Source: Phycisphaerae bacterium
GTDB lineage: Bacteria > Planctomycetota > Phycisphaerae > UBA1845
Reading direction: 5' to 3'
DNA length: 64,000 nucleotides
Assembly: GCA_035356615.1 (NCBI GenBank)
Contig: DAOQSN010000003.1
Coordinates: forward strand, 9,835 to 73,834
Position 1 is the stretch's first letter. Each line of letters starts with the position of its first letter. The position numbers were made by a program, and so were the translations under genes. Below, piece by piece: positions 6,250 to 47,348 of the stretch. The notes beneath the pieces are model-generated. The model saw nothing but the letters and a program-made list of their open reading frames with translations, had not been told where the DNA came from and did not search any database.

Positions 6250-6328
6250 GGCAGGGAGAATAGCAGGCGTCGCGCCGGGCTTCAACGCCTGGGCGACACG
6301 GCGCAGGAGCCAGCGGGAGCGCCGGTTG

Positions 6329-11975: not shown

Positions 11976-12115
11976 CGGGTGGGCCCGGGCCGCCTGGGTT
12001 TCAGCGCTGACCTTGTAGCCGTCCGCTCTGCGCCTTATCCTGCCCGCCATGCGGCCGACTTGCCCCGCAGGCTCGTCGGGAGAGTCGAGTGGACAGGGGC
12101 GCAGGAGTGCTCGCC

Positions 12116-22842: not shown

Positions 22843-23531
22843 CAGTGCCGGCCGCGGGTGTTCCTCCCAGGCGGGGGGGTCCGGTAAGACCTGCAGGGCA
22901 GGAGCGACAGGTCGCTTGGCCGGCGTGCCGGGTGGGCGGGGGCCGCCCCCAACAAGAGGGGGAGGTTCCGGCCCAAGGGGAGCCGCTGGATTCGGGGCAC
23001 TTGTCGTGCCTGACCTGCCGGAGCCGGGTCGTGCGGGGTGGTTTCCACGGCGGCAGCCGGGATGACGGACGCCGGGGCGGCGGTTGTCGGGCTTGCGTGG
23101 GGTCGCGAGTCGGCCACAGCGGCTTGGCGAGTCTTGCATTGCGGACCGGCTCCGGCTACACTCCAAGTTGGGGTGTACCCGCCGAAATGGGGGATTAGCG
23201 GCGTTAAGGGGAGCGTGGGGGACGGGTTCCGGACCGGATGGTCCAGCGAGATTACGGCTGCCGGGGCCGCGCGGGGTTGTCCTTCGACACTGAACAACAG
23301 AACGGCACACCATTGCGGCGGGTCGGCGGTGCGTTTCGCCGGAGCCGGGAACAGCCCACGAGGTACCCTGATCGGCGGCGGCGCCAAGCGCAGGCGAGGT
23401 CAACCTCGCCCTCCCCGAGGGTGATTTCAGCGGAAGGATACGGCAGAGGGTGGGTTCGGGCAGGGCACGGGGCGACGAGCGGTCCCCCGGGACGACCCGA
23501 AAGCACACCTGATAGAAAGGAGCCTGAAACG

Positions 23532-26500
23532 ATGAGGGGGCACGGGAGTCTGAGCATGCGGCTGAGCGGGTGGGCAGTGCCGGGCTTTCTCCTGGCGATC
23601 CTGACGGCGCCGACTTTTGCGCAGGGCAGCGGCGGAGCGGTCGAGGTGGCCCAGCGGGGGCCGTCCTACGAGGTCCGCTACACGGCCAACTTCCTGCCGG
23701 ACGAGCTCTCGCTCGATACGGTGCTGGGCTACGACCACGTGGAGATCACCGACGGGGCGTGGCTGAACGAGGCGGGCCTGCCGTTGCTGCCGGTCCGCAT
23801 TGCGTCCGTTGCGTTGCCTGCGGGGATGACGGTGACCGGGCTGCGGGTGCTGGGCGTAGAGACCGTGGATGTGGAGGGGGAGTATACGATCTTCCCGGGC
23901 CAGCCCTACACGCGTTGCTCGCTGCCGGCGCCGGAGTTTACGGCGCCGAATCCGCTGGCCTACGCTTCGGCCGATCCCTATCCGCTGGAGGTGGCGGAGT
24001 TGATTGACCAGGCCGACCTGGCGGGTCAGAGCTTCGCCCGCGTGCGCCTGTACCCGGTGCAGTACGTGGCGGCACAGAAGAAGCTGCGGCTTTGTACGGC
24101 GATCCGGATCGCCCTGGACGGGGTTCCGGGGTACGTGTGTGGTGACTACCTGCCGCAGCGGATATCGGAGGAGGGCCGGGCGACGCTGGAGCAGATGCTC
24201 GTCGAGTCGGTGGTGAACCCGGAGCACATTGCGGTGCAAGCGGACCCGGCGGGTGCTCCGAGCAGCCGCGGTGTGGCGCCCGGGGATTACGATTACGTCA
24301 TCATCACCCAGAGCAGTTGGGCGAGTGCGTTCGCGCCCCTGGCGGCGTGGAAGACCAAGAAGGGCGTGCCGGCGACCGTGGTGACCACGACATGGATCTA
24401 CACCAGCGGTGGCTACAGCGGCACCGAGGCCGAGAAGATCCGCGCCTTCGTGATCGACGCGTACAACAACTGGGGGACGACGTTCTTCCTGCTGGGCGGC
24501 GACACGAACACGGTGCCCTACCACGTGGACCACCACATCGAGGACGACATACCCAACGACACGTACTACGCAGACTTCGACAGTGACTGGTTCACTGAAG
24601 TGAACGTGGGGCGCGCCTCGGTACGCGACAGTGCGGCGGTGGCCACCTTCGTCAACAAGACATTGAACTATGAGAAGAACCCGCCCCTCACGGACTTCGC
24701 GAAGACGGCAACGCTGCTGGGCTTCGATCTGAAGGAGCTCCACAGCAACGAGGGCCAGCTTTGCAAGTACTACATTCACAGCAACTACCTGCCTGCGACG
24801 TGGACCGTGCGTACCGAGTACGACAGCGAGCAGGGCTCGCACAAGGCGGATGCCACGGGCTACCTGAACCTGGGTAACGTCCTGGTGAACCACATTGACC
24901 ATTCCTCCACCAACGTCATGGGGGTAGGGTCGGTCAACCACGGCGACTACTTCAGCACCAGCGACATGGGCGCCCTGACGAACGGGAGCCGCCAGAGCCT
25001 GTGGTATTCGATCGGCTGCTGGGCCTGCGACTATGCGGCGACCACCTGCGTGGCGGAGGCCTTTGTCCGCAACGCTTCGGGCGGCGGCATCGGGTTCATC
25101 GGCAACTCCCGTTACGGCTGGTACATTCCTTACATCGGGGACGGGGCCTCGCTCCGCTATGACCGTTACTTCTTCCGGTCGGTGATGTCACAGGGGCATG
25201 ACCGGATGGGGGTCGCCTTAGCCGACCATCGGAACGACGCCTACGCGGGAGACAGCTACGCCAGGTACATTTACACCGAACTGACGCTGCTGGGCGATCC
25301 GCAGACGCGTCTCTGGCTCGAGAATCCGGGGGCGTTCACGGTCGAGCATCCGGCGACCCTGCCCGTGAATGCGTACACTTCCTTCCCCGTGTTTGTGTAT
25401 CGCAACGGGGTGCCCGCCAGCGGATTCACCGTGTGCCTCATGAAGGACAACGACGTGTACGAGGTGGCAATGACCGGCGCGGAGGGTTACGTCACCTTCT
25501 GGTTTGCACCGGGCACAACGGGCACCATGTACGTCACGGTCACGCGCAAAAACTACGTGCCCTACGAGGGTCAGGCGCAAGTCGTCTACGGCCCCACCGA
25601 CCCCGAGGCGTGCTGCTTTGGCGACGAGAGCTGTCTCGACCGGCTGGCACAGGACTGCGTGGCCCTGGGAGGAACCCCGCTGGGGCCCGGTACCGCGTGC
25701 GCCACGGCCTGCTGCCCCGGACCGGCCCGGGCGTGCTGCTTTGAGGACGGCTCCTGTGCCGACCTGGATCCGGCGGTGTGCACCGGCGACGGCGGCACCC
25801 CCTGGGCTGCGGGGACCGACTGTGACAGCGTCTATTGCCCACAACCGCCCGATCCGCGGATGATCGACATCGGGCTCATCTCCACCGTCAATCCCAACAG
25901 TGTCTGCCCGGGGCGGTCGTTCGACGTCTACGTCACCCTCTCGGCTCCTGACGACGACATCCAAGATTTGCGGTTGTTGCAGTTCGACGCCAGTCTGAGC
26001 ACCAACCTGACGGTCAACAGCGTCACCTGGCAGTTGCCGGTACTTCCCGGCATGTACCTGTTCGACAGTTACCTGCCCGTGATCGGGGCAGCCTACACGG
26101 GCGTCGAACGCGAGCCCGGCTACATCGTGGACCTCGACGCCACGGCGCAAACCGTGGCGCGCCTGAGCGTCACCTACCAGGGCGGGACGGCCGAGCTCAA
26201 CGTGGTCGGCCCCGCGGGCACCTCCATCGACGAGGGCGCCTACTTTGAGGCGGGTTTCGACCCCGTGCCGTCGTTCAGTCTCAACCTCGGCAACGTCACC
26301 GGTGGCACTCTGATCTTCAGCGAAGGCAGTTGTGATGAGATCCACATCGTCAGCAGTGATCCCGCCGACGGTTGGATCGACGCCCGCGTGCCGATTGATC
26401 CAAGCACGCTGGAGGTGCAGGGTTGGACGAGTGTGCAGGTGACGTTTGACGGCGACGTCGAGGGCTTGGCAGTAACCGACTTTGCCGTGACCGAGGTTTG

Positions 26501-26894
26501 CGCCAGCGGCTCATGCGACGGCGTTGCCCCCTCCGTCTCCGCCCTGCTGCCGATCTCCAGCACCACGGTGCTGCTGGCCTTGGATCGCCCGATTGACCCG
26601 AGGGCGTGGACGGTCATCACCCTGCTGGGTGGGGATCCGACGGACCGCATCCGCCTCGGCTACCTGCCGGCCGACGCCGACGGCAGCCGGACCTCGAATG
26701 CTCAGGATATTGTGCAGGTGATCAACCAGATCAACGCGGTGTTCGGCGGAGGCACGCCGGTTCTGCACCAGTGTGACATCAACCGGTCGGGCACGGTGAC
26801 GGTGGCCGACATGCTGACGCTCATCAACCTGCTCAACGGCGCGTCGCCGTACCCGGTTGCGTACTTTGGAGAACAGCTCCCTGCGCTGCCGTAG
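23532..26894 (+). CDS. Secreted peptidase C25 (gingipain-like cysteine protease) with Cys-rich repeats and C-terminal dockerin-like module
   Basis: ATG at 23532 lies after GAAAGGAG. Signal peptide ...LLAILTAPTFAQG. YDYVIITQSSW...AWKTKKG..., FFLLGGDTNTVPY, catalytic-region VNHIDHSS and SIGCWACDY. CCF-x-D-x-SC repeated twice. C-terminal DADGSRTSNAQDIVQVI / DINRSGTVTVADMLTLI. Confidence 0.8.
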   Translation: MRGHGSLSMRLSGWAVPGFLLAILTAPTFAQGSGGAVEVAQRGPSYEVRYTANFLPDELSLDTVLGYDHVEITDGAWLNEAGLPLLPVRIASVALPAGMTVTGLRVLGVETVDVEGEYTIFPGQPYTRCSLPAPEFTAPNPLAYASADPYPLEVAELIDQADLAGQSFARVRLYPVQYVAAQKKLRLCTAIRIALDGVPGYVCGDYLPQRISEEGRATLEQMLVESVVNPEHIAVQADPAGAPSSRGVAPGDYDYVIITQSSWASAFAPLAAWKTKKGVPATVVTTTWIYTSGGYSGTEAEKIRAFVIDAYNNWGTTFFLLGGDTNTVPYHVDHHIEDDIPNDTYYADFDSDWFTEVNVGRASVRDSAAVATFVNKTLNYEKNPPLTDFAKTATLLGFDLKELHSNEGQLCKYYIHSNYLPATWTVRTEYDSEQGSHKADATGYLNLGNVLVNHIDHSSTNVMGVGSVNHGDYFSTSDMGALTNGSRQSLWYSIGCWACDYAATTCVAEAFVRNASGGGIGFIGNSRYGWYIPYIGDGASLRYDRYFFRSVMSQGHDRMGVALADHRNDAYAGDSYARYIYTELTLLGDPQTRLWLENPGAFTVEHPATLPVNAYTSFPVFVYRNGVPASGFTVCLMKDNDVYEVAMTGAEGYVTFWFAPGTTGTMYVTVTRKNYVPYEGQAQVVYGPTDPEACCFGDESCLDRLAQDCVALGGTPLGPGTACATACCPGPARACCFEDGSCADLDPAVCTGDGGTPWAAGTDCDSVYCPQPPDPRMIDIGLISTVNPNSVCPGRSFDVYVTLSAPDDDIQDLRLLQFDASLSTNLTVNSVTWQLPVLPGMYLFDSYLPVIGAAYTGVEREPGYIVDLDATAQTVARLSVTYQGGTAELNVVGPAGTSIDEGAYFEAGFDPVPSFSLNLGNVTGGTLIFSEGSCDEIHIVSSDPADGWIDARVPIDPSTLEVQGWTSVQVTFDGDVEGLAVTDFAVTEVCASGSCDGVAPSVSALLPISSTTVLLALDRPIDPRAWTVITLLGGDPTDRIRLGYLPADADGSRTSNAQDIVQVINQINAVFGGGTPVLHQCDINRSGTVTVADMLTLINLLNGASPYPVAYFGEQLPALP

Positions 26895-28566: not shown

Positions 28567-31500
28567 CTATTCTGTCACTACGAAGCTCCGGTGGGCGCGC
28601 AGACATACGTACTGCCCGGTGTCCGGGTCGCAGAGGTACATGCGCAGGTCCAGGTGAACCCGCCCGGCCGGCCCGGTGGTAAACGTGCACAGCGGCGCCT
28701 GCGGGCCGGCATAGCCCTCGGTCACCTCGTCGGAGAGCACGTGCGCCAAATAGAAGTGCGGCGGCAGATCGTCGTCGCCTTCCAGTTGCGGCCGGTAATC
28801 CTCCGGGATGTCCACCGCCTGGAAGTGGCCGGTAGCGGCCCAGGCCCCGGTGGACGCCGGTGCGGCATCCGAGAATGCGTCGGCGCCGGTGTCGGTGAAT
28901 GCTGCGAGCATGTACTGATTGACGGCGTCGGTGTCAGCGCGGCAGTGCAGTTCATATGTGGTGTACGGTGCAAGAACGCGCACTGCCGCCCGGCGGTTGG
29001 GCCGGCGGACCTCGAAAGTCAAATCGGCTTCCGTGCAGAGGGGGCCTTGCGGCGGCAGCAGAACGCGGGGCTCTCCTTCCGGCAGCGAACCGCCGCCCAT
29101 GAGCAGGTATCCCTCGCCCCCGCTTGGGCCCGAGAAATTGGCGAAGAAGAGCTGGTAGTCCGTCAGGTCCACGTCGTCATCGCTGTCGAGATCGGCGGCG
29201 CCGCACCCCGGCGGGTAGCCGACCCCTGCGCCGAGCAGGCAGACTGCGAAAGTACCGAAGTCGGCCAAGTCAACATCGCAGTCGTCGTCGACGTCTCCCG
29301 GCAGGGTCAAGGACGTCATCGTCAGTGTCGCCGCGTCGCTGATGACTGAACCGCAATGCCACACGCGCACGCGATAGTCGCCGGCGTCGGCCGCCCGGGC
29401 GTCGGCAATCACCAGCGTGGGCGTTGTCGCTCCGGAGATGACGCTGCCGTAGCCGGTCGGACCGTCGAACAACGGTGTGCTATCGCGGTACCATTGATAC
29501 TCCAAGGGTCCGCACCCGCATGCGTCGACGGCGAATGAGGGCGTGCCGCACGCCTCGACGGCCTGATCGTCTGGCTGGGTCACCCGTGGTGGCGCTGCGT
29601 CGTTCCATCGCGCGATATGTCGCGCCGGGAGTCCTCCAGAGGTCACGAACTGGCCGCCGGCGAACAGGGCCGGCAGATGCGGCGCGCAGTCTGCTTCGGG
29701 GTAGACCGTCAAGGCACGCACACAGTTGTTCATCCCCGACCCCAGTGGGTGCCAGGCGCTGCCGTCCCAGCGGGCGATCCTGTCGCATGGACCACCGCTG
29801 GCGCTCATGAAGTCGCCGCCTGCGATCAACTCGCCGTTGAAGACCGCAAGGGCACGCAGAGCGTCGTTCGTCCCCGACCCCACTGGCTGCCAGGTGCTCC
29901 CGTTCCAGCAGGCGATGTAGTTGCACGTCACGCCGCCAGCGGTCGTGAAACTACCTCCCGCGATCAGCTCGCCGTTGTAGACCCTCAGCGCGTACACATA
30001 ACCGTTCATCCCCGACCCCAGCGGCTGCCAGGTGCTACCGTTCCAGCGGGCGATCCGGTTGCACGGCACGCCGCCAGCCGTCGTGAAACCGCCCCCCGCG
30101 ATCAAATCACCGTTGTGGGCCGTTAGGGCGGTCACGGCGCCGCTGTTCATCCCCGACCCCAGCGGCTGCCAGACGGCGCCGTCCCAGCGGGCGATGTAGA
30201 GGCACGACACGCCGCCGGCGGTCGTGAACCAGCCCCCCGCAATCAGCTCGCCATTGTAGACCCTCAGGGCGTACACATCACCGTTCATCCCCGACCCCAG
30301 CGGATGCCAGGTGCTACCGTTCCAGCGGGCGATCCGGTTGCACGGCACGCCGCCCGCCGTCGTGAAACCGCCCCCCGCGATCAAATCGCCGTTGTAGACC
30401 GACAGGGCTTGCACGTATGGGTAACTGCCGCCCATCCCCGATCCCAGCGGTTGCCAGTCCAAACCATCCCATTGGGCGATGTAGTTCACGTCCAGCCCGC
30501 CCGCATGTCGGAGTTCGCCGCCCACCATGAGCACGGGCGGTTGCGGACCAGCGCCATCACGGTCCCACACAGTCATCGCCAGCACACGACCGTCCAAGCC
30601 CAGGTACCCATCCGGAAACTGCTCCACCCAGCCGAGGCAGGGACACCCCGGCTGGCACTCGTCGGGCACGCCGTCACCCTGGCAATCCTCGCTAGTTCCC
30701 GCATGGATATCGCAACAGTCGCGTACGCCGTTCTGATTGCAGTCCGCCCACCAGCATTCCGGTTCGCACTCATCCGGGACGTCATTCTCGTTGCAGTCGT
30801 CGCTCAGCCCGGAGCCGATGTCGCAACAGTCGCTTTTCCCGTTCTGATTGCAGTCCTCCCAGCATTCCGGCTCGCACTCGTCCGGTACGCCGCTGACGTT
30901 ACAGTCTAGGCTGGTGCCGTGGTAGATATCGCAACTGTCTGGGGTGTCGTTGTCGTTGCAGTCCGGCTGCGGCATGTAGCCCTCGAAATCAGCGGCCATG
31001 TAGGACTGCGTGTCACAAGCCAAGCTGCTCGAGAGCCCACCATACGGGCTGTCGCTGTAGATCACCACGTCGCGCACGTAGTATGGCCCATCGATGCCGC
31101 GTTGCCCGATCAGGGTACCGTTGAAGGTGAGCGTCAAGCTCTCGACGGCGCCGCCGGTTAGGTACTGGGTGCCGTATGCGAACTGGAGGTGCTCCCCACA
31201 TGGGCCAACCAGCCGAACGTCATAGATGTACACGCGCGTATCGGTGACGAGGACGCCGAGATCGACGCGAAGTTGGTCGAACAGCCCGTTGCCGTTGCTG
31301 TCGATCCCGGCGTCGGAATTGACGCCCGTGAGCTGAATCGCCGGATGCTCGAACGACGCAACCAGCCACGCTTGGGTTGGCTGCGAGCCGTCCTGAACCA
31401 AGTCGGTCGGCATCGCGCCGGACTCGCTCCAAAGGACCAGTTCGGCCTGGGTGATCGTATAGGGCGCGTCCTCGTTGATGTTGGTGATATCCTCGGCTGA

Positions 31501-32541
31501 AATCTGGGCCGACACGGTCGTCGAGCCGACCGGTAGTGAGGCTGTGCCGTGTCCCTGGAGCGTCTGTCCCAAGGCCGTTTCGAGCGTCACGTGCAGCGCG
31601 TACTCTCCGGCGACGAATACAGTAACCGGAGCTGTGATGGCGAGGAACTCGTACAGCCCGTTACCGTTCGTGTCGACTCCGGCATCGCCGAGGAGCGTCG
31701 AGTCGAACGTCGCGGTGGGTACCACCACCTCGAGCTGCGCGGCCACGTGCCGCAGGAAGCTGTGCCCCATGCTGGTCGTGCCGGTGATCTCGGCCATGGC
31801 GGTGTACTGCCCGACCTCGTTGGCTTGGAAGACCGCGCTATAGAGCCCGTCACCGACAGTGTCATCGGCGTTCAGGCCGTCGTCCAGCAGCACCAAGGGG
31901 ATCACATCGCCCGCCGGTGGCATAAGATTGACTGTCACCGTGGCGCCCACGACTGGCGTCGAGTTCTCGTACACCGCGGCCACGACGACACTGTACTTAC
32001 CCTGGACCAGGATCGCGTCGGTCATGAACAGAGCGGCCGCAACGGGGCTGTCCGTCGTGACCTGAGTGATTACCGCGACGTCCTGCGTCAGCCCGCTGCC
32101 TGCGAAGCTCACCACATAGCTGCCTGGACCAAGAGCCGGGAAAACGTACACGTGGTGATACCCCGGGGCGCTGGCGGGCATGATCATGAAACTATCGGGC
32201 TCGTCAGTACCCTCGAAGTCGCCGTATTCGCCACCGAAATTGGCGATTGTCTGCGGATCGAGTATCTCGCTGTTGGGCCCGGTGATGCTCGTCGTCAGCG
32301 CTCCGCCCGAGGACGTGATCTGCACGTAGATCACCGTGCAGTCGTCGATGGCGAAGGAGGCGGTCTCGCTGGGCACCTCGGGAGCCAGATGCTCCACCGC
32401 GGTCTGAGTTCTCTGCAAGGCCACCAAAACGTCGGGGTCCTGCGCTCGAGCGGCGCCCGTACCCGCAGCCGACGTCGCAGCGAGCACGACACCCACCGTC
32501 AAAGTCAATCGCGCCCATCGGGAACTTCCCACTGCCTTCAT
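28567..32541 (-). CDS. Giant secreted protein: Ig-like/adhesin N-region, Cys-rich triple repeat, 6-7-bladed beta-propeller repeats, Ig-like domain and dockerin-like module
   Basis: Signal peptide MKAVGSSRWARLTLTVGVVLAATSAAGTGAARA. Three copies of CNQNG..DCCDI..G.S.DCN.N.VPDECEPEC. About 47-aa repeats IARWNGSTWQPLGSGMNG.VYALRVYNGELIAGG.FTTAGGV.C. DVDDDCDVDLADF / DLDSDDDVDLTDY. Confidence 0.85.
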   Translation of the reverse strand: MKAVGSSRWARLTLTVGVVLAATSAAGTGAARAQDPDVLVALQRTQTAVEHLAPEVPSETASFAIDDCTVIYVQITSSGGALTTSITGPNSEILDPQTIANFGGEYGDFEGTDEPDSFMIMPASAPGYHHVYVFPALGPGSYVVSFAGSGLTQDVAVITQVTTDSPVAAALFMTDAILVQGKYSVVVAAVYENSTPVVGATVTVNLMPPAGDVIPLVLLDDGLNADDTVGDGLYSAVFQANEVGQYTAMAEITGTTSMGHSFLRHVAAQLEVVVPTATFDSTLLGDAGVDTNGNGLYEFLAITAPVTVFVAGEYALHVTLETALGQTLQGHGTASLPVGSTTVSAQISAEDITNINEDAPYTITQAELVLWSESGAMPTDLVQDGSQPTQAWLVASFEHPAIQLTGVNSDAGIDSNGNGLFDQLRVDLGVLVTDTRVYIYDVRLVGPCGEHLQFAYGTQYLTGGAVESLTLTFNGTLIGQRGIDGPYYVRDVVIYSDSPYGGLSSSLACDTQSYMAADFEGYMPQPDCNDNDTPDSCDIYHGTSLDCNVSGVPDECEPECWEDCNQNGKSDCCDIGSGLSDDCNENDVPDECEPECWWADCNQNGVRDCCDIHAGTSEDCQGDGVPDECQPGCPCLGWVEQFPDGYLGLDGRVLAMTVWDRDGAGPQPPVLMVGGELRHAGGLDVNYIAQWDGLDWQPLGSGMGGSYPYVQALSVYNGDLIAGGGFTTAGGVPCNRIARWNGSTWHPLGSGMNGDVYALRVYNGELIAGGWFTTAGGVSCLYIARWDGAVWQPLGSGMNSGAVTALTAHNGDLIAGGGFTTAGGVPCNRIARWNGSTWQPLGSGMNGYVYALRVYNGELIAGGSFTTAGGVTCNYIACWNGSTWQPVGSGTNDALRALAVFNGELIAGGDFMSASGGPCDRIARWDGSAWHPLGSGMNNCVRALTVYPEADCAPHLPALFAGGQFVTSGGLPARHIARWNDAAPPRVTQPDDQAVEACGTPSFAVDACGCGPLEYQWYRDSTPLFDGPTGYGSVISGATTPTLVIADARAADAGDYRVRVWHCGSVISDAATLTMTSLTLPGDVDDDCDVDLADFGTFAVCLLGAGVGYPPGCGAADLDSDDDVDLTDYQLFFANFSGPSGGEGYLLMGGGSLPEGEPRVLLPPQGPLCTEADLTFEVRRPNRRAAVRVLAPYTTYELHCRADTDAVNQYMLAAFTDTGADAFSDAAPASTGAWAATGHFQAVDIPEDYRPQLEGDDDLPPHFYLAHVLSDEVTEGYAGPQAPLCTFTTGPAGRVHLDLRMYLCDPDTGQYVCLRAHRSFVVTE

Positions 32542-33269
32542 TGGTCATCCCCCTGCTTCAGGTTTGTAGGGACGATGCAAAGCTTGGCCTCCGAAACGTA
32601 GACTACGTACCGCTCGTCGTAGGACCAGCACGGCGCGGGTATCCACATCTCGGGGGGAGGCAGCGCCACCGGCTTGCCCACGCGGGTTCCATCGGAGCGC
32701 TCGAAGACCTCGTGGTACTGCTCCTCGTAAGACCACCCGCCCCCCCCGATGAACGGAACTGGGGAAAGCGAGAAATGCTGCTTCCGCTTCGCCGAGAACA
32801 CCGCCACGTACCGCCCGGACGGCGATGCCACCGCGTTGACCACTGTGGGCTTGGCCGTCGACAGGACTCGCCCCTGGAACTTCAATGTGCCGCTCGGAAG
32901 ATCGAACGCAAACGGGTCGATCGTTTGAGCTTCAGCCCTGCAGTCGCAGACGACGCCCGTCGCTGCCGTCCACGCCGCTGCCCCCACGGGCTCCAGCCGC
33001 TCTGCTCCCGGCTGATAGCGGTAGATTACGCTGTCGGGTGGCGGCACACTCGCAGCGAGATCCGCACCGGCCGCTTCCGTCGGCGTCACGGTGCGCAGGA
33101 GCAGGTCGGCCGCGTCGGGTGAGGAGCCGCGGAGCAGGAGCTGGTACGCGTCCTCCCAGCCCGGCGTGTCATAGACCGGCAGGTCGGGCGCACGCCGTCT
33201 GCAACTTGCGCCCAGCAGCAAGCCGCCCACGGTCAACACCACCACCAGCAGTACGTCTCGGAACGCCAT
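32538..33269 (-). CDS. Putative lipoprotein/periplasmic protein, tandem paralog 1 (PD40/TolB-like SPSGRYVAV motifs)
   Basis: MAFRDVLLVVVLTVGGLLLGASC signal with a lipobox-like Cys. Its stop overlaps the ATG of the giant gene (ATGA). Confidence 0.75.
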   Translation of the reverse strand: MAFRDVLLVVVLTVGGLLLGASCRRRAPDLPVYDTPGWEDAYQLLLRGSSPDAADLLLRTVTPTEAAGADLAASVPPPDSVIYRYQPGAERLEPVGAAAWTAATGVVCDCRAEAQTIDPFAFDLPSGTLKFQGRVLSTAKPTVVNAVASPSGRYVAVFSAKRKQHFSLSPVPFIGGGGWSYEEQYHEVFERSDGTRVGKPVALPPPEMWIPAPCWSYDERYVVYVSEAKLCIVPTNLKQGDDQ

Positions 33270-33449
33270 GATTTCACCTCGGTTTCAGGTCGCCATTGGC
33301 GCGCTCGACGTTAATCAACCACGGACCGACCGTCGCAGCCACACCGGTGTCCGCGACACTCGCGTGGTTTCGCCCGGCGTTCCGGCGACGGTGACGCCTA
33401 CTGCCAAGGTCAGTCTCGGGCCTCGGGAACTTCCCATCGCCTTCATCGG

Positions 33450-34184
33450 TCATTCTCCTCTCTCTACGTCCGTAGGGACGATGCAAAGGATGATGCCGGC
33501 AGAATCGCGGTAGACCACATACCGTTCGTCGCAGGACCAGCAGGCCATCGTCCCCCAGTTGACCGAGCTCAGCGGCAGCGCCACCGCCGCGCCGAGGCGG
33601 GTTCCGTCGGAACGTTTGAGCACTTCGTGATAGTGTTGCTCGATGCACCCGCCTCCGCCCATAAAAGGAACCGGCGAAAACGAATGACGCCGCGTCCGCT
33701 CACCCGAGACCACGGCCACGTACCGCCCGGACGGCGAGGGCACCACGTTCGCGAGCGAGGGCTTGGCCGTCGTTACGGCTCGGCCTTGAAACGTCAACGT
33801 GTCGCTCTGATAATCGACCCCGAACGGATCAATCGGTTGGGCCTCCTGGGCCACACAATCGCAAACCTCCCCGGTCGCCGCCGTCCAGGCCGAAGCGCGC
33901 ACGGTCTCCAGCCGTTGTGCTCCGGGCTGATAACGGTAGATCACGCTGTCGGGAGACGGCGCACTCGTCACCCGATGGGCTGCGACTGGTTCCGGCACCG
34001 CAAACGCGCGCAGCAGCAGGTCGGTGCTCCCGGGAGCGGAGCTGCGCAGCACGAATTGGCCAGCCCCCCCCCAGTCCGCAGTGTCGTAAACCGGCAGGTC
34101 CGGCGCGCGCCGCCTGCAACTCGCGCCCAGTAGCAGGCCGCCGAGGCTCAACAAGACCACCATCAAGATGTCTCGGAAAGCCAT
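33450..34184 (-). CDS. Putative lipoprotein, tandem paralog 2
   Basis: MAFRDILMVVLLSLGGLLLGASC... About 60% identical by eye to paralogs 1 and 3. Confidence 0.75.
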   Translation of the reverse strand: MAFRDILMVVLLSLGGLLLGASCRRRAPDLPVYDTADWGGAGQFVLRSSAPGSTDLLLRAFAVPEPVAAHRVTSAPSPDSVIYRYQPGAQRLETVRASAWTAATGEVCDCVAQEAQPIDPFGVDYQSDTLTFQGRAVTTAKPSLANVVPSPSGRYVAVVSGERTRRHSFSPVPFMGGGGCIEQHYHEVLKRSDGTRLGAAVALPLSSVNWGTMACWSCDERYVVYRDSAGIILCIVPTDVERGE

Positions 34185-34364
34185 GATTTCACCTCGGTTT
34201 CAGGTCGCCATTGGCGCGCTCGACGTTAATCAACCACGGAGCCACATTCGCGACCACGCCGGCGTCCGCGACACTCACGTGGTTTCGCTCGGCGTCGCGG
34301 CGAGCACCACGCCTACTGTCAGGGTCGCCCTCGGACATCCGGAACTTCCCATTGCCTCCGTCGG

Positions 34365-35087
34365 TCATTCGCCCTTCTTTACGTTCGCAGGGACAATGCA
34401 AAGCTTGCCATCTGAAGCGTAGACTACATGCCGCTCGTCGCAGGACCAGCAGGCTATCGCCCCCCCCATGTACATGGCCTTGGGCAGGGTCACCACCCGG
34501 CCGACGCGGGTTCCGTCGGAACGCCTGAACAACTCGTGGTAGTACTGCCAACCGACTGTGTCCCCCACCCCCGAAAACGAGACCGGCGCAAGCCCGTTAC
34601 GCCGCAGCCTCTTGGCCGAAAGCACCGCCACGTACCGCCCGGACGGCGATGTCCGCGCCGTCAGCACTTTGGCACCGCCCGTCGTCAGGGCTCGGCCTTG
34701 AAACGTCAGGGTATGGGTCCGGTAGTCGAACACCAACGGGTCGATCGCCCCCTGCGTCGCCGAGTCGCAGATTGCTCCCGTCGCTGCCGTCCACGCCGCA
34801 GCCCCCACGGGCTCCAACCGGTCTGCTCCGGGCTCATAGCGGTAGATCACGCGGTCGGTCGGCGCGCTGCCCGCGGCGTCGGGCGAGCGCCTTTCCGCCT
34901 CCGTCAAGGTGCGAAGCAGCAGGTCGGTGCTGTCGGGTGCGGAACTGCGGAGCAGGAGCCGCGACGCACCCTCCCAATCCGGGGTGTCATAGACCTGCAG
35001 ATCCGGAGGGCGCTGCCTGCAACTCGCGCCCAGCAACAGCCCGCCCAGGCTCAGCAAGACCGTCGCCAGGATGTCTCGGAACGCCAT
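34365..35087 (-). CDS. Putative lipoprotein, tandem paralog 3
   Basis: MAFRDILATVLLSLGGLLLGASC... It starts 4 nt after the stop of the upstream hydrolase gene. Confidence 0.75.
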   Translation of the reverse strand: MAFRDILATVLLSLGGLLLGASCRQRPPDLQVYDTPDWEGASRLLLRSSAPDSTDLLLRTLTEAERRSPDAAGSAPTDRVIYRYEPGADRLEPVGAAAWTAATGAICDSATQGAIDPLVFDYRTHTLTFQGRALTTGGAKVLTARTSPSGRYVAVLSAKRLRRNGLAPVSFSGVGDTVGWQYYHELFRRSDGTRVGRVVTLPKAMYMGGAIACWSCDERHVVYASDGKLCIVPANVKKGE

Positions 35088-35091
35088 GATT

Positions 35092-36738
35092 TCACCTCGG
35101 TTTCAGGTCGCCATTGGCGCGCTCGACGTTGACCAACCACGGACTGACCGTCGCGGCCACACCGGCGTCGGCGACATTCGCGTGGTTTCGCCCGGCGGCA
35201 CCGAGGAATGTGAACGTGTTGGTCACCCGCGGCTGGAGACTGCCCAACCCGACCCCGCTCGGGACCGTCACGAGTGTGTCGTTGCCCAGTGGAACCGGGT
35301 TGGGCACGCCCGTCATCGTGGCCACCGTGATCGAGCCCACGCCTATGTTGACGCGCCGGAAGCTCAGGGTTACCGCCGACGTGTTCCGCAAGACCTGATA
35401 CAACGTGTCGACGATCTCCCGCGAGAGAAGGACACTCTGGGAGTGGATGATGGCCAACGCAATACTCTCGGCCCGCAGGGCGGCATACTCGTCCGTCCCG
35501 TAGTAATCAATCATCGCGTTGCCGTTGGTATCCGCGTCGGCCGCGACCGTGTTATACACGATGTCGCCGGGCAGCCTCCCGATGTTGCCCCGATTGAACG
35601 CGGCACAGACATTGGTACGCAGGTCCGGCCTGCCAGGGTCGGGGCGCGTCAGGTAGGCCAAGGCGTTCGCCATGCCCGGAAGACCGTCGAATTCGACGTA
35701 GGTGGCCAGCACTGCGGCGCTTCGGTGGGTCTCGGCGACGTCAGCCAGGACGCTGCCGTTATGGGGCGTGCTCAATGTGGTATAAGATAGAATCTTGAAC
35801 GTGTTCCGATGGGCCGGATAGTATCGATCGAGGAACTCGCGCGTGTCGAGGCCGCCCTTGCTGTGGCAGACCAGGTGGACGCTGTCCACGCCGAACTGAC
35901 GCACGATCGGCGGGATTTGGGTGCTGAGCCGGCCGCCGTTGTCCATCCGGGCGGCGGTCGGCAGGTCGATCGTGTTGTTCCAGAGCAGGAACTGGGCGTC
36001 GAGACCCGTTGTGAAGCCCCGCCGCGCGAAGAAGCCGCCGTCCGACTCATTCCCGTGAATCAGGATGACCGGCGACATGCACTGGATCTCAATTGTGACC
36101 CAATCGATGGCCGTACACCACCGCTCCTCGGGAAAGTTGGCGGTGTCGATGTCGATTCTGATTATATTGTCACGCGGGATGGGTGGGTCGCCTCCCGTGC
36201 CGGGCGCCTCGGGAAACAAGACAAACTGGATCGGCACCCTAAACGAGTTCAACCGCCACTGGTTGTTAACGCCCTGGAGAAACTCACTGTTCTCGTGATC
36301 GAGCATGTTCATCGGGACGCCGTTGAAGCTCGCGCGGTCGCGCTCGCAAGGCGGTGTGGAATAAGGGAGGCAGTCGTAGTCAACGTCCGACACTGGCATG
36401 CTGATGACAGCATAGCGCGAGATCAAACCGCGCGCGATGAGCTCCTCGGCGTGGACCAGACGTCCGTCAGGGTAGGTCGGCCCAAGGTAGCGGGTGGTCT
36501 GACAGGTGATGATAAGCGGTCCTTGGCTGCGGAACAAGCACTCGGTATCGAGACCGGAGCCCGCGTCGACGACGAAGGTTCGGTCGTCACGCGTGGGAGC
36601 CGGGAAGGGAGATGAACCCCGTCCGTCCCATTCCGGAGGTGGGTCGTCAACGTCATTCGCCTGCGCCGGGCAGACCCAGAGCAAGTTGGTGAGCAGCAGC
36701 CCGCCGAGCCAGAGCTTCAACACGCTGCACGCCTTCAT
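35092..36738 (-). CDS. Secreted alpha/beta-hydrolase, lipase/esterase-like
   Basis: ATG at 36738 lies after TAAGGAGGAAG. Signal peptide MKACSVLKLWLGGLLLTNLLWVCPAQA. VILIHGNESDGG and the nucleophile elbow VHLVCHSKGGLDT. Confidence 0.75.
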   Translation of the reverse strand: MKACSVLKLWLGGLLLTNLLWVCPAQANDVDDPPPEWDGRGSSPFPAPTRDDRTFVVDAGSGLDTECLFRSQGPLIITCQTTRYLGPTYPDGRLVHAEELIARGLISRYAVISMPVSDVDYDCLPYSTPPCERDRASFNGVPMNMLDHENSEFLQGVNNQWRLNSFRVPIQFVLFPEAPGTGGDPPIPRDNIIRIDIDTANFPEERWCTAIDWVTIEIQCMSPVILIHGNESDGGFFARRGFTTGLDAQFLLWNNTIDLPTAARMDNGGRLSTQIPPIVRQFGVDSVHLVCHSKGGLDTREFLDRYYPAHRNTFKILSYTTLSTPHNGSVLADVAETHRSAAVLATYVEFDGLPGMANALAYLTRPDPGRPDLRTNVCAAFNRGNIGRLPGDIVYNTVAADADTNGNAMIDYYGTDEYAALRAESIALAIIHSQSVLLSREIVDTLYQVLRNTSAVTLSFRRVNIGVGSITVATMTGVPNPVPLGNDTLVTVPSGVGLGSLQPRVTNTFTFLGAAGRNHANVADAGVAATVSPWLVNVERANGDLKPR

Positions 36739-37219
36739 GATCTTCCTCCTTAGTCTCGACGATCGTCGTGCCGCCGCCACCGCCAGCGCGATCATTCTAA
36801 TCCGAGTTGCCCTCTTCGTCCGCGCCTCCACACACCCGACTTGCCGGAACTTACACACTTTACGGAAGCGTCTCTTGGCATCCTATAGCCTGCCCTTCCC
36901 TCGCGTCAAACTCCGCGGGGAGGCGTGCCTCAATCGGGGGTTGGCGGGGGGATTGGTGGTTCAGGCTACCCGACCAGAACCGGCATGCGGTGGCCGAGGA
37001 TGCCCCATGAGGCGGAGCACGGTGAGCACACTCCGTGGTCACAACTCTCGGGCGCGGCGCAACTTGTGGTCGCCGGGACGCACGGAACATATAGTTGACC
37101 GTGCGCAACCGTGCGACAATCGGGGTATCGCTGCCCCGCGTGGGCTGAAACCCCGTATGTGCTTAGCATCTGGTGGGCGGTGGGTAAGCGTGCTTGTGCT
37201 CCGCCCGGCGTGTTCGCTT

Positions 37220-37500: not shown

Positions 37501-38964
37501 TCAGTGTTTGGCTGCCTGAAAGCGTTCGATCGTCTCTTGCAGGGACGGCTTGACCCGGTCGTTGGGGCAGAGTTCGAGGGCCTGCTTCTCCAGAGCGATG
37601 GCTTCCTCGACGGCGCCGGTCTCGAACTTCGCCAGCGCGAGCGTGTCCAGGAACATCCAGTTCTTCCCGCCGGAGACCTCGTGGCAGCGCTGGGCGGCCG
37701 ACAGGGCCAGCTCGTTGAACTTGCCCTGGAACGGCGGTTCGGTAAGCAGCGTCCAGGCCGCCTCGTTAAGCAGGCCGGCGTCCTCCGCCGCCTTCTTGAG
37801 CAGCTCGGCGGCGGCGGCTTTCGCGGGCTCCGTCTTGCCCATGTCGGCCAGCAGGCGCACCTTCGCCCAGAGCCGGCGCGGCTCTTGCGGCTCGGCCGTG
37901 ATCGCGCGGTCGAGTGCCTCCAGAGCCACGTCGCCGTAGCGCGTCCGATGCATCTCCGAACCGAGCACGTCGGCCATCTGCGTCAGTGCCGGCGCGTCGG
38001 TCTTGCAGATTTCGAGGGTGGCCAGCACCCAGGCGCGGGCCTCGTCCTGTTGACCGGAGGCACTCAGAGCTCCGAAGTGCGCCAAGCGGGCGTCGATGTC
38101 GTTGGGGGCGAGGTCGGTCGCGCGTTTCGCGGCCTGGGCGGCCAGCTTCACGAACTCGGGATGGTTCTCGACGCCGAGCAACTGGTCGGCAAGGCCGGCC
38201 AATGCCTTGGGCTTGTCAGTGAAGCGCGACAGGGCCTCGCGGGCGATGCCCAGGGCCTGCTCGGGTTGGTTGAGCCCCTCCAGGCAAGCGACGATCTTGA
38301 AGTGCCACGGCTCGGTCAGCTCCGGGTTGAGCGCGAGCAGCGTGTCCGCGTGCTTCATCACGTCTTCCCATTTGGCACTGAACAACGCCGTTTGCAGATC
38401 GCGCTCCGCGCGGCGAAGCTGCTTGGCCCGCTGGACGTCGTACTTGCCGGCCAGCAACTGAGTGAGCGTCTCTTCCAGGTCGCCCGCGGGGTGCCCGATC
38501 CAGGCGATGCGCCCCTCCTTGTCGATGACGAACGCCGTCGGAATACCACCCTCGCCCGCGGCATCCATGTAGGCTTTGGAGGTGCGGTCCTCCTTCTCAT
38601 ACCCGATTGTGTAGGCGAGCTTGTCCCCCTGCTTCTGCACGAAGGCCTCGACTTTCTCCAGCGTGTTGTCAGGGTCTTCGGTGGTCAGGCCGATGATGGT
38701 GACGCCCGCGGGTCCGAACTTGCGTTGCAGCTCGGTCAGGTGAGGCACGGCCGCCAAGCACGGGGAGCACCACGTCGCCCAGAACTCGACGACCACCACG
38801 GACTTGCCCTTGACGGCCGCGAGGTCGACCGGTTGACCCTTGACCCACTTGTCCACTTGCAGAGCCGGGGCCGGATCACCGATGTCCAACGTTGCCGGCG
38901 CGGTCTGTCCGAAGGCTGCTCCTGCGCCCACCAGGACCAGGCCTGCCCATAGTGCGTGTCTCAT
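37501..38964 (-). CDS. Secreted TlpA/ResA-like thioredoxin-fold thiol:disulfide oxidoreductase fused to TPR-like helical repeats
   Basis: Signal peptide MRHALWAGLVLVGAGAAFG. VVVEFWATWCSPCLAAVPHL (CxxC). IPTAFVIDKEGRIAWIG. C-terminal helical repeats ending ALELCPND. Confidence 0.8.
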   Translation of the reverse strand: MRHALWAGLVLVGAGAAFGQTAPATLDIGDPAPALQVDKWVKGQPVDLAAVKGKSVVVVEFWATWCSPCLAAVPHLTELQRKFGPAGVTIIGLTTEDPDNTLEKVEAFVQKQGDKLAYTIGYEKEDRTSKAYMDAAGEGGIPTAFVIDKEGRIAWIGHPAGDLEETLTQLLAGKYDVQRAKQLRRAERDLQTALFSAKWEDVMKHADTLLALNPELTEPWHFKIVACLEGLNQPEQALGIAREALSRFTDKPKALAGLADQLLGVENHPEFVKLAAQAAKRATDLAPNDIDARLAHFGALSASGQQDEARAWVLATLEICKTDAPALTQMADVLGSEMHRTRYGDVALEALDRAITAEPQEPRRLWAKVRLLADMGKTEPAKAAAAELLKKAAEDAGLLNEAAWTLLTEPPFQGKFNELALSAAQRCHEVSGGKNWMFLDTLALAKFETGAVEEAIALEKQALELCPNDRVKPSLQETIERFQAAKH

Positions 38965-39184
38965 GCAGTTACTCCTGACTACCATTAACGTTGAGTCGTT
39001 TGCCTTTGCGGAAGTTGCCCCCGCGGGTCCAGCGAAGCAGCAGTGTCCGCCCCCGGGAGCTTGTCTAGGAAGTAGCGTCGGCCCGAGGGGGCCGACATGG
39101 AGGTCTCCCCACCTGCTGCAACGGGCTGCGGGCCGGCGAACGCACCGGTATGTCCGTGGCGGAAGGAGCTTCTTCAGCAGGTTC

Positions 39185-40684
39185 CTACGGCTGCTTGTCC
39201 TTCTCAAACTCCTGCGCGCGTGCTTCGAGGGCCTTCTTCTGTTCCTCGTCCTGGCACAGCTCCACGGCCTTCTTGAACATTTCCAGGGCTTCGGCGGTGG
39301 CCCCGTGGCGGAGCTTCGCCACGGCCAGAGTCAGCACGTACTCCCAGTTGGTGCCGCCGGACAGCTCGTGGCAGCGCTGAGCGGCCTCCAGGGCCAGCTC
39401 TTTGTAGCGGTCTCCGAGGAGCGGATCGGCAAGCAACTCGGAGGCGAACGCGTTCAGGCTGACCGGATCGGTCTGGGCCTTATTGAGGAACTCGCGTCCC
39501 ACGGCGCGGACGTCGCGGGGCTCCTTGGCGCCGCGGGCCATGATGAAGAACTTCGACTGCACGTAGCCGGCGTCCGTGGGGCGGGCCTTGATTGCGTCGT
39601 TGACCGCACGCAGCGCCAAATCCGTATACTGCCCGCCGGCCAGACCGGCCAGCGTGGTCGCGAACCCGTGCAGGTCGGGCGGTCTGCCCGCCAGCGTCTT
39701 GAGCAGCTTCGCCCCGAAGCGGGCGATTTCCGTGTCGTTCCGCTGCGCCGCCAGGGCCTGGATGTATACCAGGCTCGCGCTGTAGTCGTTCGGGTTGACC
39801 TTGAGGGCATCCTGGGCCGCGCGCGTGGCGAGCTTGTTGAAGCTGGCGCCGTAGTTGCCCCTCAGCAGCGTCGTGGCCAGCGATTGCAGCGACGTGGCAT
39901 CGCCCTGGAACTGCGCGATGGCCTTCTCCGCCACACCCAGGGCGGTCTCGCGGGTCGACTCGTATTGCAGGTACGCGAGCAGCTTCAACTCCCACGTGTC
40001 CACCTGCTTGGGGCTGCGCTCGAGCAGCTTGTCGATCTCAGCTACCTGGGCGGCGAGTTTCTCTTCATCGACCTTCCGACGTTCACTCCCGGACTGAGGG
40101 GCCCGAGGATTGGCGATCTGCAGCAGTTGCGTGCGGAGCACGGCCGCCTGCCGGGCGGTGTCCACGTCATAGGTACCAGCCAGGACGGCCGGCAGCACCG
40201 CGTCCAGCGCAAACGGCGAGCCGATCCACGCGACGCGTCCCGAACGATCCACCACGAAGGCCGTCGGGATGCCATCCTGTCCGGCGGCGCGCATGTAGGC
40301 GTCGTACGTCCGCCCGTCTTTGTCAAACGCAACCGCGTAGGCCATCTGGTCGCCCTGCCGCTGCACGAACGACCTGACCGCGTCCAGCTTGTTGCGGTCG
40401 TCCTGCTTGGTCACGCCGACGATCACGAGCCCCTGCGCGGCGTATTGCGTCTGGAGGCGTGTCAGATGCGGGATGCTCGCCCGGCAAGGACCGCACCACG
40501 TCGCCCAGAACTCCAGCACCAGCACGCCGCGCCCCTGCAGCATGGGCACGTCCACCGCCTCCCCCTTGAGCCACGTGTCAAGCTGGAAACGCGGAGCCGC
40601 GTCGCCGATCGTCAAGTCAGCCCCCGCCAGCGGGGCGAACAAGCACACTGCCAAGGCAAACACCGGCCCGGAAGTCCGCTTCAT
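39185..40684 (-). CDS. Secreted TlpA-like thioredoxin-fold protein fused to TPR-like repeats (tandem paralog)
   Basis: Signal peptide MKRTSGPVFALAVCLFAPLAGA. LVLEFWATWCGPCRASIPHL. IPTAFVVDRSGRVAWIG. Confidence 0.8.
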   Translation of the reverse strand: MKRTSGPVFALAVCLFAPLAGADLTIGDAAPRFQLDTWLKGEAVDVPMLQGRGVLVLEFWATWCGPCRASIPHLTRLQTQYAAQGLVIVGVTKQDDRNKLDAVRSFVQRQGDQMAYAVAFDKDGRTYDAYMRAAGQDGIPTAFVVDRSGRVAWIGSPFALDAVLPAVLAGTYDVDTARQAAVLRTQLLQIANPRAPQSGSERRKVDEEKLAAQVAEIDKLLERSPKQVDTWELKLLAYLQYESTRETALGVAEKAIAQFQGDATSLQSLATTLLRGNYGASFNKLATRAAQDALKVNPNDYSASLVYIQALAAQRNDTEIARFGAKLLKTLAGRPPDLHGFATTLAGLAGGQYTDLALRAVNDAIKARPTDAGYVQSKFFIMARGAKEPRDVRAVGREFLNKAQTDPVSLNAFASELLADPLLGDRYKELALEAAQRCHELSGGTNWEYVLTLAVAKLRHGATAEALEMFKKAVELCQDEEQKKALEARAQEFEKDKQP

Positions 40685-41873: not shown

Positions 41874-43252
<1,379 letters not shown>

Positions 43253-43256
<4 letters not shown>

Positions 43257-43474
43257 ACGTCACCTCCCCTTTGCTTTCGTCGGGGCAAGCGTACCAGCGT
43301 CAGCCGGTAGCCGAGTGTTGCGGCCAGCCTCTCGGCCGACGCGAGAGACAACCCCCGCTCGCCGGACAGCAGCCGCGACAAGGCGGATTGCTCGATACCA
43401 CCGTCAACCGACAGCCGGTATCGAGTCCGCCCGTCCGCTTGGATCAGCTTCCGAAGATCGTCCAGTAGGTTCAT
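43253..43474 (-). CDS. Small helix-turn-helix (XRE/Cro-like) DNA-binding protein
   Basis: MNLLDDLRKLIQADGRTRYRLSVDGGIEQSALSRLLSGERGLSLASAERLAATLGY. Its stop overlaps the integrase ATG (ATGA). Confidence 0.6.
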
Positions 43475-43505
43475 GCCGGTACCATACCCCATTGCTTGCC
43501 GCGCG

Positions 43506-45902: not shown

Positions 45903-46117
45903 CGCGCACCGCCTTTCGTGCGCGCGTCGAGCCAGGCTTGCAGCGCGTGAACGTTGTAAAGGGTTCGGGCCCCGAGCCGCAGGTGCGGGATTTCGCCGGA
46001 GTTCGTGCGCGACCACAGCAACCGCACGCCGATGCCCAGCATTCGCGCCGCCTCACGCGCGCCAACCGCCAGGGGGGCCGGGGCGTCGGGGGTCACAGAG
46101 TGTTTCTTACTGGGCAT
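45899..46117 (-). CDS. Excisionase-family (AlpA/MerR-type HTH_17) DNA-binding protein
   Basis: LAVGAREAARMLGIGVRLLWSRTNSGEIPHLRLGARTLYNVHALQAWL. Confidence 0.7.
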   Translation of the reverse strand: MPSKKHSVTPDAPAPLAVGAREAARMLGIGVRLLWSRTNSGEIPHLRLGARTLYNVHALQAWLDARTKGGAR

Positions 46118-46316
46118 CGGTGTCCCCTTTGCGTGCTGCCCGTGCCAGTAGTTCGCGCTCTACGGCAGCACAATTGAAGAGGAGGCGGCGCCCAGCGCGC
46201 AGGTAGGGCACGCGCTCGGCTTCGGCTTCGGTGCGCAGCCAGGCAGCGGGCACCCCGAGCCGGAACGCCGCGCGCTCCAGTGAGATGAAACTTTCGTTGG
46301 TGTTGCGTGGGTCCAT
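46107..46316 (-). CDS. Second excisionase-family HTH protein
   Basis: ISLERAAFRLGVPAAWLRTEAEAERVPYLRAGRRLLFNCAAVEREL. It overlaps the next gene by 11 nt. Confidence 0.65.
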   Translation of the reverse strand: MDPRNTNESFISLERAAFRLGVPAAWLRTEAEAERVPYLRAGRRLLFNCAAVERELLARAARKGDTDAQ

Positions 46317-46390
46317 GCCCCGAGTGTGAACGCGCGCGGACCGCACGCAAGCGTTTTTCGCCGTGAGGGGGTTTCTTTCGGATATTCGGA

Positions 46391-47065: not shown

Positions 47066-47348
47066 GCCACCTATCCTTCGCGGGCCGACCCGGCCGAGCC
47101 CAGGCGATAGGTGTTCCTGGACCCGGCTGGGCCGTTCGCAAGCCGTCGCCTGCTGCCCACCACAGTTTCCGCGTGCGGTCGCCCGCGTCAACACACTTGC
47201 CAAACATTGCCACCGGCGCCCTTAACCTCTTATCTACTTTTCGGTCGCCTTGTTGTTTCAGGGGCCGCCGGTTCCGCCCCTACCGCCAAGCCCGCCGAGC
47301 TGCCGATCGTCGCTTGGCGCGGCCTTTCCGCCTGCGGCCGGGGCATCG

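Follow-up and report, generated by a model that had tools for sequence, protein, structure and literature searches.

A tandemly multiplied family of predicted envelope proteins is encoded between a family-I-like lipase and its conserved partner in a Phycisphaerae operon

The locus described here lies on a 64,000-nucleotide stretch of a Phycisphaerae genome (positions 9,835 to 73,834 of contig DAOQSN010000003.1, assembly GCA_035356615.1; hereafter the window) and consists of five head-to-tail genes on the minus strand that form a translationally coupled operon for exported proteins: a lipase-like hydrolase, three paralogous proteins and a giant secreted protein. The paralogs are called here M1 to M3, M standing for the middle gene, and the N-terminal ~520 residues of the giant protein are called gN. 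Three features are new, namely the unannotated and widespread M family, a conserved three-gene cassette (hydrolase, M and gN) built upon an even wider lipase-gN pair, and the repeated tandem amplification of M, which copied and then conserved the signals for translational coupling. The association of a secreted lipase with an accessory protein encoded downstream is of an already known kind. By analogy with such systems, we tentatively propose, with a probability of roughly 0.4, that the lipase has in M an envelope-tethered partner, which would act as a holding inhibitor or an escort in the producer's own periplasm.

The hydrolase gene (35092-36738, on the minus strand like all features of the operon) encodes 548 residues from the start MKACSV, its open reading frame (ORF) staying open to 36858. 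It is followed by M1 (34365-35087, 240 residues), a 180-nucleotide (nt) spacer (34185-34364), M2 (33450-34184, 244 residues), a second 180-nt spacer (33270-33449), M3 (32538-33269, 243 residues) and the gene of the giant (28567-32541, 1324 residues). This ORF map agrees with the order of hydrolase, three ~240-residue paralogs and giant that an original prediction, made from the letters of the sequence, had read on this strand. The couplings that it described at both ends of the array were also seen: M1 begins 4 nt past the hydrolase stop, the junction reading TGA, AATC and then the M1 ATG, and the M3 stop and the giant start share the overlap ATGA. No terminator-like site was found at the gene junctions, the single match lying inside M1 and being fewer than in shuffled sequences, which is consistent with one transcript. 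An assembly artefact was ruled out, as independent JGI and NCBI assemblies of this Phycisphaerae metagenome-assembled genome (MAG) carry the identical array, with 0 mismatches over 8735 nt. The NCBI annotation places the giant start 41 codons downstream of the ATGA-overlap start called by JGI (5767 in L091 versus 5644 in L090; 32541 in the window). The upstream, ATGA-overlap start is probably the true one, since it restores a signal peptide and is the start that was copied into the spacers. None of the five operon proteins matched a PADLOC anti-phage model, and a reading of the locus as anti-phage defence was dropped on that ground.

The M genes are carried by a direct repeat of ~905-915 nt present in three copies. 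A three-way alignment showed that each spacer is a chimeric scar in which the first ~69-76 nt of the giant gene, counted from its ATG, are fused to ~100 nt from the 3' end of the hydrolase gene. The hydrolase-derived part of both spacers includes the junction GAGGTGA-aatc-ATG, and the hidden Markov model (HMM) of the hydrolase independently picked up both scars (profile positions 504-536; E 2e-13 and 6e-11). A 915-nt unit has been tandemly multiplied to three copies, with its end points within the 3' end of the hydrolase gene and the 5' end of the giant gene, so that each M copy inherited the hydrolase-M ribosome-binding-site junction upstream and the M-giant overlap downstream. Each spacer holds a 59-codon ORF, at 34188-34368 in spacer 1 and at 33273-33453 in spacer 2. 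Its start shares an ATGA with the stop of the M gene before it (M1 or M2), and it closes 4 nt short of the ATG of the M gene after it (M2 or M3, respectively); the ORF of spacer 1 is also present in the JGI gene calls (59 residues). Both ORFs were considered as conserved peptides and rejected, the ratio of nonsynonymous to synonymous differences (pN/pS) being 0.7-0.9 in all three frames, with no constraint at the protein level. The copied ATG of the giant gene is mutated to ACG in spacer 1; in spacer 2 (33400-33446, minus strand) it is intact and opens a 43-codon ORF (MKAMGSSRGPRLTLAVGV...), a remnant of the giant signal peptide.

The scars are better conserved than the neighbouring synonymous sites: they are 84.5% identical to each other, compared with ~59% for the synonymous sites in the genes beside them (pS ~0.41). 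The longest run identical in all three units measures 48 nt, whereas 20,000 shuffles of the columns gave longest runs that averaged 12.9 nt and never exceeded 33 nt. This block comprises the last 12 hydrolase codons, the stop, AATC and ATGGC, and its copies lie at 35083-35130, at 34180-34227 upstream of M2 and at 33265-33312 upstream of M3. Together with the alignment and the hydrolase HMM, it bears out the originally proposed duplication of a ~0.9-kb unit by fusion of the giant head to the hydrolase tail, with the coupling context kept in each copy. RNA structure was rejected as the cause of spacer conservation, as the folding z-scores were -0.2 and -1.1, 0 covarying pairs were detected and Rfam returned nothing. 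We infer that the constraint would preserve the context of translation initiation and coupling, so that M2 and M3 would be expressed like M1.

The three units are equidistant, the three possible pairings being supported by 91, 97 and 96 sites, and the synonymous divergence (dS) among the three copies amounts to 0.53-0.75, which together indicate that the triplication is old and that its events occurred in quick succession. A chimeric middle copy arising by unequal crossing-over was not seen, given this equidistance. All three copies are intact and their ratio of nonsynonymous to synonymous divergence (dN/dS), a comparison that had been asked for at the outset, is 0.32-0.53; they are under purifying selection, albeit of a relaxed kind. 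Constraint is stronger on the codons of the signal peptide (dN 0.08-0.18), and the dS of these codons is as high as elsewhere, which argues against gene conversion in this part of the genes.

M1, M2 and M3 are 60-63% identical by alignment, close to the ~60% first estimated by eye, and all open with MAFRD(I/V)L...GGLLLGASC. No model of Pfam, NCBIfam or PADLOC matched M. A word-indexed search with M3 returned only the three paralogs and a 98-sequence profile almost nothing more, so that an exhaustive HMM search was needed; it yielded 372 cluster representatives at E < 1e-3, of which 221 at E < 1e-10, mostly ~240 residues long. When the N-termini of the 131 family representatives in which this end is complete were compared with a PROSITE-type lipobox pattern, 55 carried a lipobox and 61 another hydrophobic N-terminus, together 116 of the 131 (~89%). 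The window copies fit a PS51257-type pattern ending at C23, (S/T)(L/V)GGLLLGAS-C23, in keeping with their original description as lipoproteins; this lipobox, predicted by pattern only, is non-canonical, with Gly instead of Leu at position -3. Instead of D, the Cys that is predicted to be lipidated is followed by R or Q. According to the rules established in E. coli, which may not hold in this phylum, a residue other than D at this position suggests sorting to the outer membrane.

The AlphaFold2 model of M3 (mean predicted local distance difference test, pLDDT, 89.9) begins with a helix, the signal or anchor, and is otherwise all-beta, with ~16 strands. Fold comparisons gave only weak matches, to propellers such as TolB and Lp49 (E at best ~1e-3, template modelling (TM) score at most 0.35), and comparison of the M profile with the PDB gave WD40 blades (E ~2e-3). 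M shares with PD40/TolB-like propellers its PD40-like blade motifs (SPSGRYVAV and CWSxDERYVVY), and these propellers provide its best, though weak, fold matches; unlike them, M has ~215 mature residues and does not form a canonical closed propeller of 6-8 blades. By sequence and model, M thus represents an undescribed family of predicted all-beta proteins, which a lipid or a transmembrane segment would anchor in the envelope. In about 7% of the M family members listed, two or three M domains are fused in one protein. Such lipoproteins occur at L084-L087, L093 and L094 (P0129, P0125, P0135, P0194, P0221 and P0155) and had no Pfam match; two of them, P0135 and P0194, further contain a Cys-rich CDxNG motif and, at the C-terminus, a beta domain of ~200 residues.

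The AlphaFold2 model of the hydrolase is confident (pLDDT 88.6) and comprises an N-terminal beta-sandwich domain (~residues 50-230) and an alpha/beta-hydrolase domain resembling those of family-I lipases. The closest solved structures found by Foldseek were Burkholderia and Pseudomonas lipases of families I.1 and I.2 and BlEst2 (E ~1e-9), complexes of family-I lipases with Lif/LipB (2es4, 9g8u) being among the matches; the lipases of these complexes depend on a membrane-anchored partner that is encoded downstream of them. The hydrolase profile likewise matched family-I lipases of the PDB with E values of 6e-12 to 5e-11, a similarity that is distant at 12-18% identity. The hallmarks of this family, namely the alpha/beta fold, the G/A-H-S-x-G-G elbow, the Asp of N-D-x-L-V and a C-terminal His, were found in the hydrolase. 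Its triad S293 (CHSKGG), D487 (GNDTLV) and H519 (GRNH) is invariant in 29 homologs, and in the model S293 occupies a nucleophile elbow where strand 286-292 passes into helix 295-310. The original prediction, which would have fallen with a defective triad, stands on this point. Judged by eye, the protein begins with a typical Sec signal peptide. Pfam gave weak matches only (DUF7379, PGAP1, LCAT and Palm_thioest) and NCBIfam none; neither the hydrolase nor M matched the Tle, Tli or Lif families in these two databases. A lead to DUF4785 was discarded, being only a weak match to an immunoglobulin (Ig)-like domain of Legionella NttD, a type II secretion system (T2SS) substrate. The hydrolase is accordingly predicted to be a Sec-exported, distant relative of family-I lipases with an intact catalytic triad, and the lipase-like character ascribed to it from the start is upheld by fold and profile.

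Residues 1 to ~550 of the giant form a conserved partner module of the hydrolase, gN, and are followed by Cys-rich repeats, DUF5122 propeller blades, an Ig domain and a dockerin-like C-terminal region. The initial designation of the giant as a dockerin protein holds in part, a DxDxD pair motif being visible in its sequence while the Pfam match is sub-threshold (E 0.029). Related loci were collected by scanning species-representative genomes and metagenomes with the hydrolase alignment and by locating M and gN with their own HMMs; pattern scans with the M alignment found nothing usable, as no stretch is conserved enough. About 24 loci with M were found, in Phycisphaerae, Acidobacteriota, one Betaproteobacteria MAG and one Thiotrichaceae MAG. 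Wherever a single-domain M is present in a readable context (~24 loci), it stands between the hydrolase and the gN protein (L001, L003, L005, L006, L008, L011, L020, L031, L088, L095-L099 and others). At L013 and L014, membrane-anchored ORFs that score below the HMM threshold occupy the equivalent position. The five closest metagenomic relatives of the hydrolase are each accompanied by exactly one M. The hydrolase, M and gN form a co-inherited cassette.

The pair of hydrolase and gN is far wider than M and often occurs without it. A single ORF encodes both the hydrolase and gN, as a fusion, in at least 9 loci (L016-L019, L021, L026, L037, L042 and L044; match regions ~6500-10600 in most), the taxa concerned being Thermoanaerobaculia, Eisenbacteria, Deltaproteobacteria, Planctomycetota, Wenzhouxiangella, Tepidisphaeraceae and Lentisphaeria. 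These fusions, which constitute evidence of the Rosetta-stone type, suggest that the hydrolase and gN work together. In a Deltaproteobacteria MAG (L012, 1988-10842), the whole hydrolase-gN pair is tandemly duplicated and M is absent. L015 was considered as a case of hydrolase and M without gN and set aside, its sequence being interrupted by N-masked gaps.

M is normally a single-copy gene, most M-bearing loci having exactly one. In a neighbour-joining tree the three window copies cluster together, as do the three of L020 and the two of L015, which indicates that M has been amplified independently in at least three Phycisphaerae loci. The comparison of copy number in relatives, also called for by the original prediction, has thus given one M as the typical state and independent amplifications at L020 and L015. 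The two readable arrays, those of the window and of L020, show analogous chimeric junctions. The L020 spacers are again chimeras of giant head and hydrolase tail, with breakpoints unlike those of the window. The short ORFs that they hold begin within an ATGA shared with the stop before them, and one of these ORFs closes in the same manner, on an ATGA shared with the start that follows. At L020 (2871-5343), all three copies carry a transmembrane anchor instead of a lipobox. Copies 1 and 3 of this array have a dS of 0.04 after codon 30, compared with 0.45 in the first 30 codons, which points to a mosaic produced by recombination or gene conversion. Between the window and L001, identity is 40% for M, 48% for gN and 58% for the hydrolase; M evolves faster than both of its neighbours.

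The conservation of the cassette, the predicted targeting of M to the envelope, the identity of the lipase and its triad, the fast evolution of M, its independent amplifications, the conservation of the scars and the precedents of other lipases all argue for M as a partner of the lipase. In the mechanism that we propose, M would be tethered in the membrane and bind the lipase, and would keep the enzyme inactive, or escort it, while it sits in the producer's periplasm; no interbacterial delivery system forms part of it. The extra M copies would probably reflect selection for dosage followed by divergence, and the chimeric spacer ORFs might let ribosomes pass from one M copy to the next. The logic would be that of PhlB with PhlA, of Lif with the family I.1/I.2 lipases and of Tli with Tle, M being homologous to none of these partners. 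PhlB is taken to act in the cytoplasm. This ~24-kDa protein, encoded directly downstream of PhlA, forms an inactive complex with it and neutralises the enzyme inside the producer (PMC3039968), where its action is described only as 'intracellular' (PMC3039968). Like PhlA-PhlB and YplA-YplB, the operon combines a secreted lipolytic enzyme with an accessory protein encoded directly downstream, and theirs is the logic proposed here for M; unlike PhlA-PhlB, it shows no sequence relationship to that pair, M is predicted to be exported and membrane-anchored, and PhlA is secreted by the flagellar pathway.

Several observations weigh against this proposal. Hydrolase-gN loci devoid of M occur in Vibrio, Enterovibrio, Pseudoalteromonas, Shewanella, Rubrivivax and some Acidobacteria and at L007, L010 and L012, which implies that the lipase family does not generally need M, and the hydrolase-gN fusions point to gN rather than M as the obligate partner of the hydrolase. 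The fold of M resembles, weakly, generic beta-propellers only and no known inhibitor or chaperone. The fused M proteins with a usable context (L085, L086, L093 and L094) stand in housekeeping surroundings with no hydrolase or gN nearby, so that the M domain may have a more general binding role. The expectation that discovery of such paralogs away from a lipase would speak against a lipase partnership is thereby answered in two ways: the fused two- and three-domain M proteins do occur without a lipase neighbour, and single-domain M lies directly downstream of the hydrolase in all of the ~24 loci with a readable context. The distance correlation (mirror-tree) of M with the hydrolase and gN is not discriminating (r 0.81 versus 0.79).

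An unlikely, albeit serious, alternative is that M is a surface or outer-membrane anchor or adaptor tethering the hydrolase, the giant or both to the envelope, its copies diverging through exposure to phage, predators or antibodies or through binding to different parts of the giant. M is indeed as close to the giant, through the ATGA overlap, as to the hydrolase, and it is absent where the hydrolase and gN are fused, as expected of a bridge between them; unfused two-gene loci of hydrolase and gN nevertheless exist without M. The tandem M domains within single lipoproteins, some with extra C-terminal modules (P0135 and P0194), have the appearance of scaffold or binding proteins, and the R or Q after the lipidated Cys would suit an outer-membrane location by E. 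coli rules; the fold and profile comparisons of M, however, found no cohesin-like or other known anchoring fold, and the dockerin-like region of the giant stays below threshold. We consider it rather improbable that M has no direct functional link to the lipase at all, being a hitch-hiking envelope protein whose triplication was a neutral by-product of unequal recombination. Multi-domain M proteins occur in other contexts, and the three equidistant copies look like an old one-off event. Against such neutrality, single-domain M is placed strictly between the hydrolase and gN across phyla, all window copies have stayed intact with dN/dS < 1 after a dS of ~0.5-0.75, the upstream scars are constrained, and M was amplified independently in L020 and L015.

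The effector-immunity layout of the Tle-Tli type, to which the locus had been likened originally, has to be weighed in the same way. A true interbacterial system, in which the Sec-exported lipase would be an antibacterial toxin, M1-M3 its cognate and extra immunity proteins, and the fused M proteins elsewhere orphan immunity genes against foreign lipase variants, appears quite improbable to us. The locus agrees with the published description of tle-tli loci (PMC13133936), in which immunity falls to Tli lipoproteins or Sec proteins that can be present in more than one copy (PMC13133936); M is a predicted lipoprotein, adjoins a lipase and is present in three copies. As in Tle-Tli, a lipase gene precedes one or several genes for exported partners, here lipoproteins encoded directly downstream, and the partner diverges quickly and varies in copy number, M having been expanded repeatedly and independently; orphan M arrays also exist away from lipases. 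By contrast, the 20 large ORFs of the window that were scanned with Pfam include no gene of a type VI secretion system (T6SS; vgrG, hcp, PAAR or adaptor), of a T2SS, of contact-dependent inhibition (CDI), of Rhs or of another delivery system, and the Vibrio locus L034, likewise without T6SS or T2SS genes, lies amid housekeeping-type genes, none of them from a secretion system. The hydrolase has its own Sec signal and, to our knowledge, Tle effectors delivered by the T6SS are not exported by Sec. Tle1 does reach the periplasm when a signal sequence is added (PMC13133936). The hydrolase is furthermore family-I-lipase-like and no member of Tle1-Tle5, and M is similar neither to DUF3304 nor to other Tli families. 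One hydrolase faces three M copies in the window, most M-bearing loci carry exactly one M, many lipase-bearing genomes have none, and the fusion of the hydrolase to an Ig-rich module in several phyla suggests a surface or secreted enzyme more than a toxin. The Tle/Tli analogy is therefore partly supported: adjacency, lipobox, fast divergence and repeated amplification stand, and the lack of T6SS genes and the Sec signal, both foreseen when the analogy was drawn, the missing family matches and gN as the conserved partner do not fit it. The layout is real and conserved, and nothing demonstrates a toxin-immunity function.

A variant of this idea, which seems to us equally improbable, would see in M a new family of envelope-anchored lipase inhibitors conferring immunity, in Planctomycetota and Acidobacteriota, to antibacterial lipases that are secreted by Sec and act independently of contact, the arrays of the window, L020 and L015 and the fused orphan M proteins forming a repertoire against the lipases of rivals. 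Finally, M could act like Lif without being its homologue, as a steric foldase or secretion chaperone required for folding of the lipase domain in the periplasm, a reading that we find very doubtful. Lif is membrane-anchored and encoded directly downstream of its lipase. M shares this predicted anchoring and position, and the catalytic domain of the hydrolase is closest by structure and profile to the family I.1/I.2 lipases, Lif/LipB complexes being among its matches. Unlike in LipA-Lif/LipB, however, M is all-beta in its model, without the helical Lif fold and without a match to the Pfam Lif family (Lipase_chap), and the hydrolase has an extra N-terminal beta domain of ~190 residues and gN as a conserved third partner. 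Many members of the hydrolase family, moreover, fold without M, and copies at 60% identity with a dN/dS of 0.3-0.5 would be atypical of a dedicated chaperone.

The surroundings of the operon were also inspected. A candidate sigma-70-like promoter lies 5' of the hydrolase gene (36880-36909, minus strand; TTGACG-18-TAGGAT, 9 of 12 matches, a weak consensus match only). Directly upstream of the hydrolase and on the same strand, two adjacent paralogous exported thioredoxins of the TlpA type (AhpC-TSA/Redoxin; 37501-40684; 568 and 499 residues) with TPR-like tails represent another tandem duplication; this pair might supply periplasmic disulfide chemistry for the Cys-rich products of the operon. 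Two tRNA-Arg(ACG) genes (41874-41947 and 47805-47881) flank a tyrosine integrase (41880-43256) and a Prim-Pol/DUF3987 protein (43506-46016), and the interval 41874-47881 is probably an integrated mobile element with a duplicated tRNA attachment site; the lipase operon, ~5 kb away, is not part of it. On the other side are found a gingipain-like C25 peptidase of 1218 residues with a propeptide domain (23238-26894) and restriction-modification genes (2716-6486, 12089-13222 and 14838-16847) for an Eco57I/MmeI-like type IIG enzyme, an N6/N4 methylase and a ResIII helicase-nuclease.

Taken together, these results describe a cassette of three uncharacterised parts, a two-domain lipase, the M family and the ~520-residue gN, that recurs across phyla. 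The locus is also a clean natural case in which an internal gene of a coupled operon was tandemly duplicated, its coupling signals being copied along with it and the scars then placed under constraint. If M were an immunity factor, the locus would represent a T6SS-independent counterpart of Tle/Tli. If M is instead the envelope-tethered inhibitor or escort of the lipase that we favour, it would represent a structurally new way in which Gram-negative bacteria handle a membrane-damaging enzyme in their own periplasm, and would also offer a handle on the function of the lipase-gN pair in Vibrio, Pseudoalteromonas, Shewanella, Acidobacteria and Planctomycetes.

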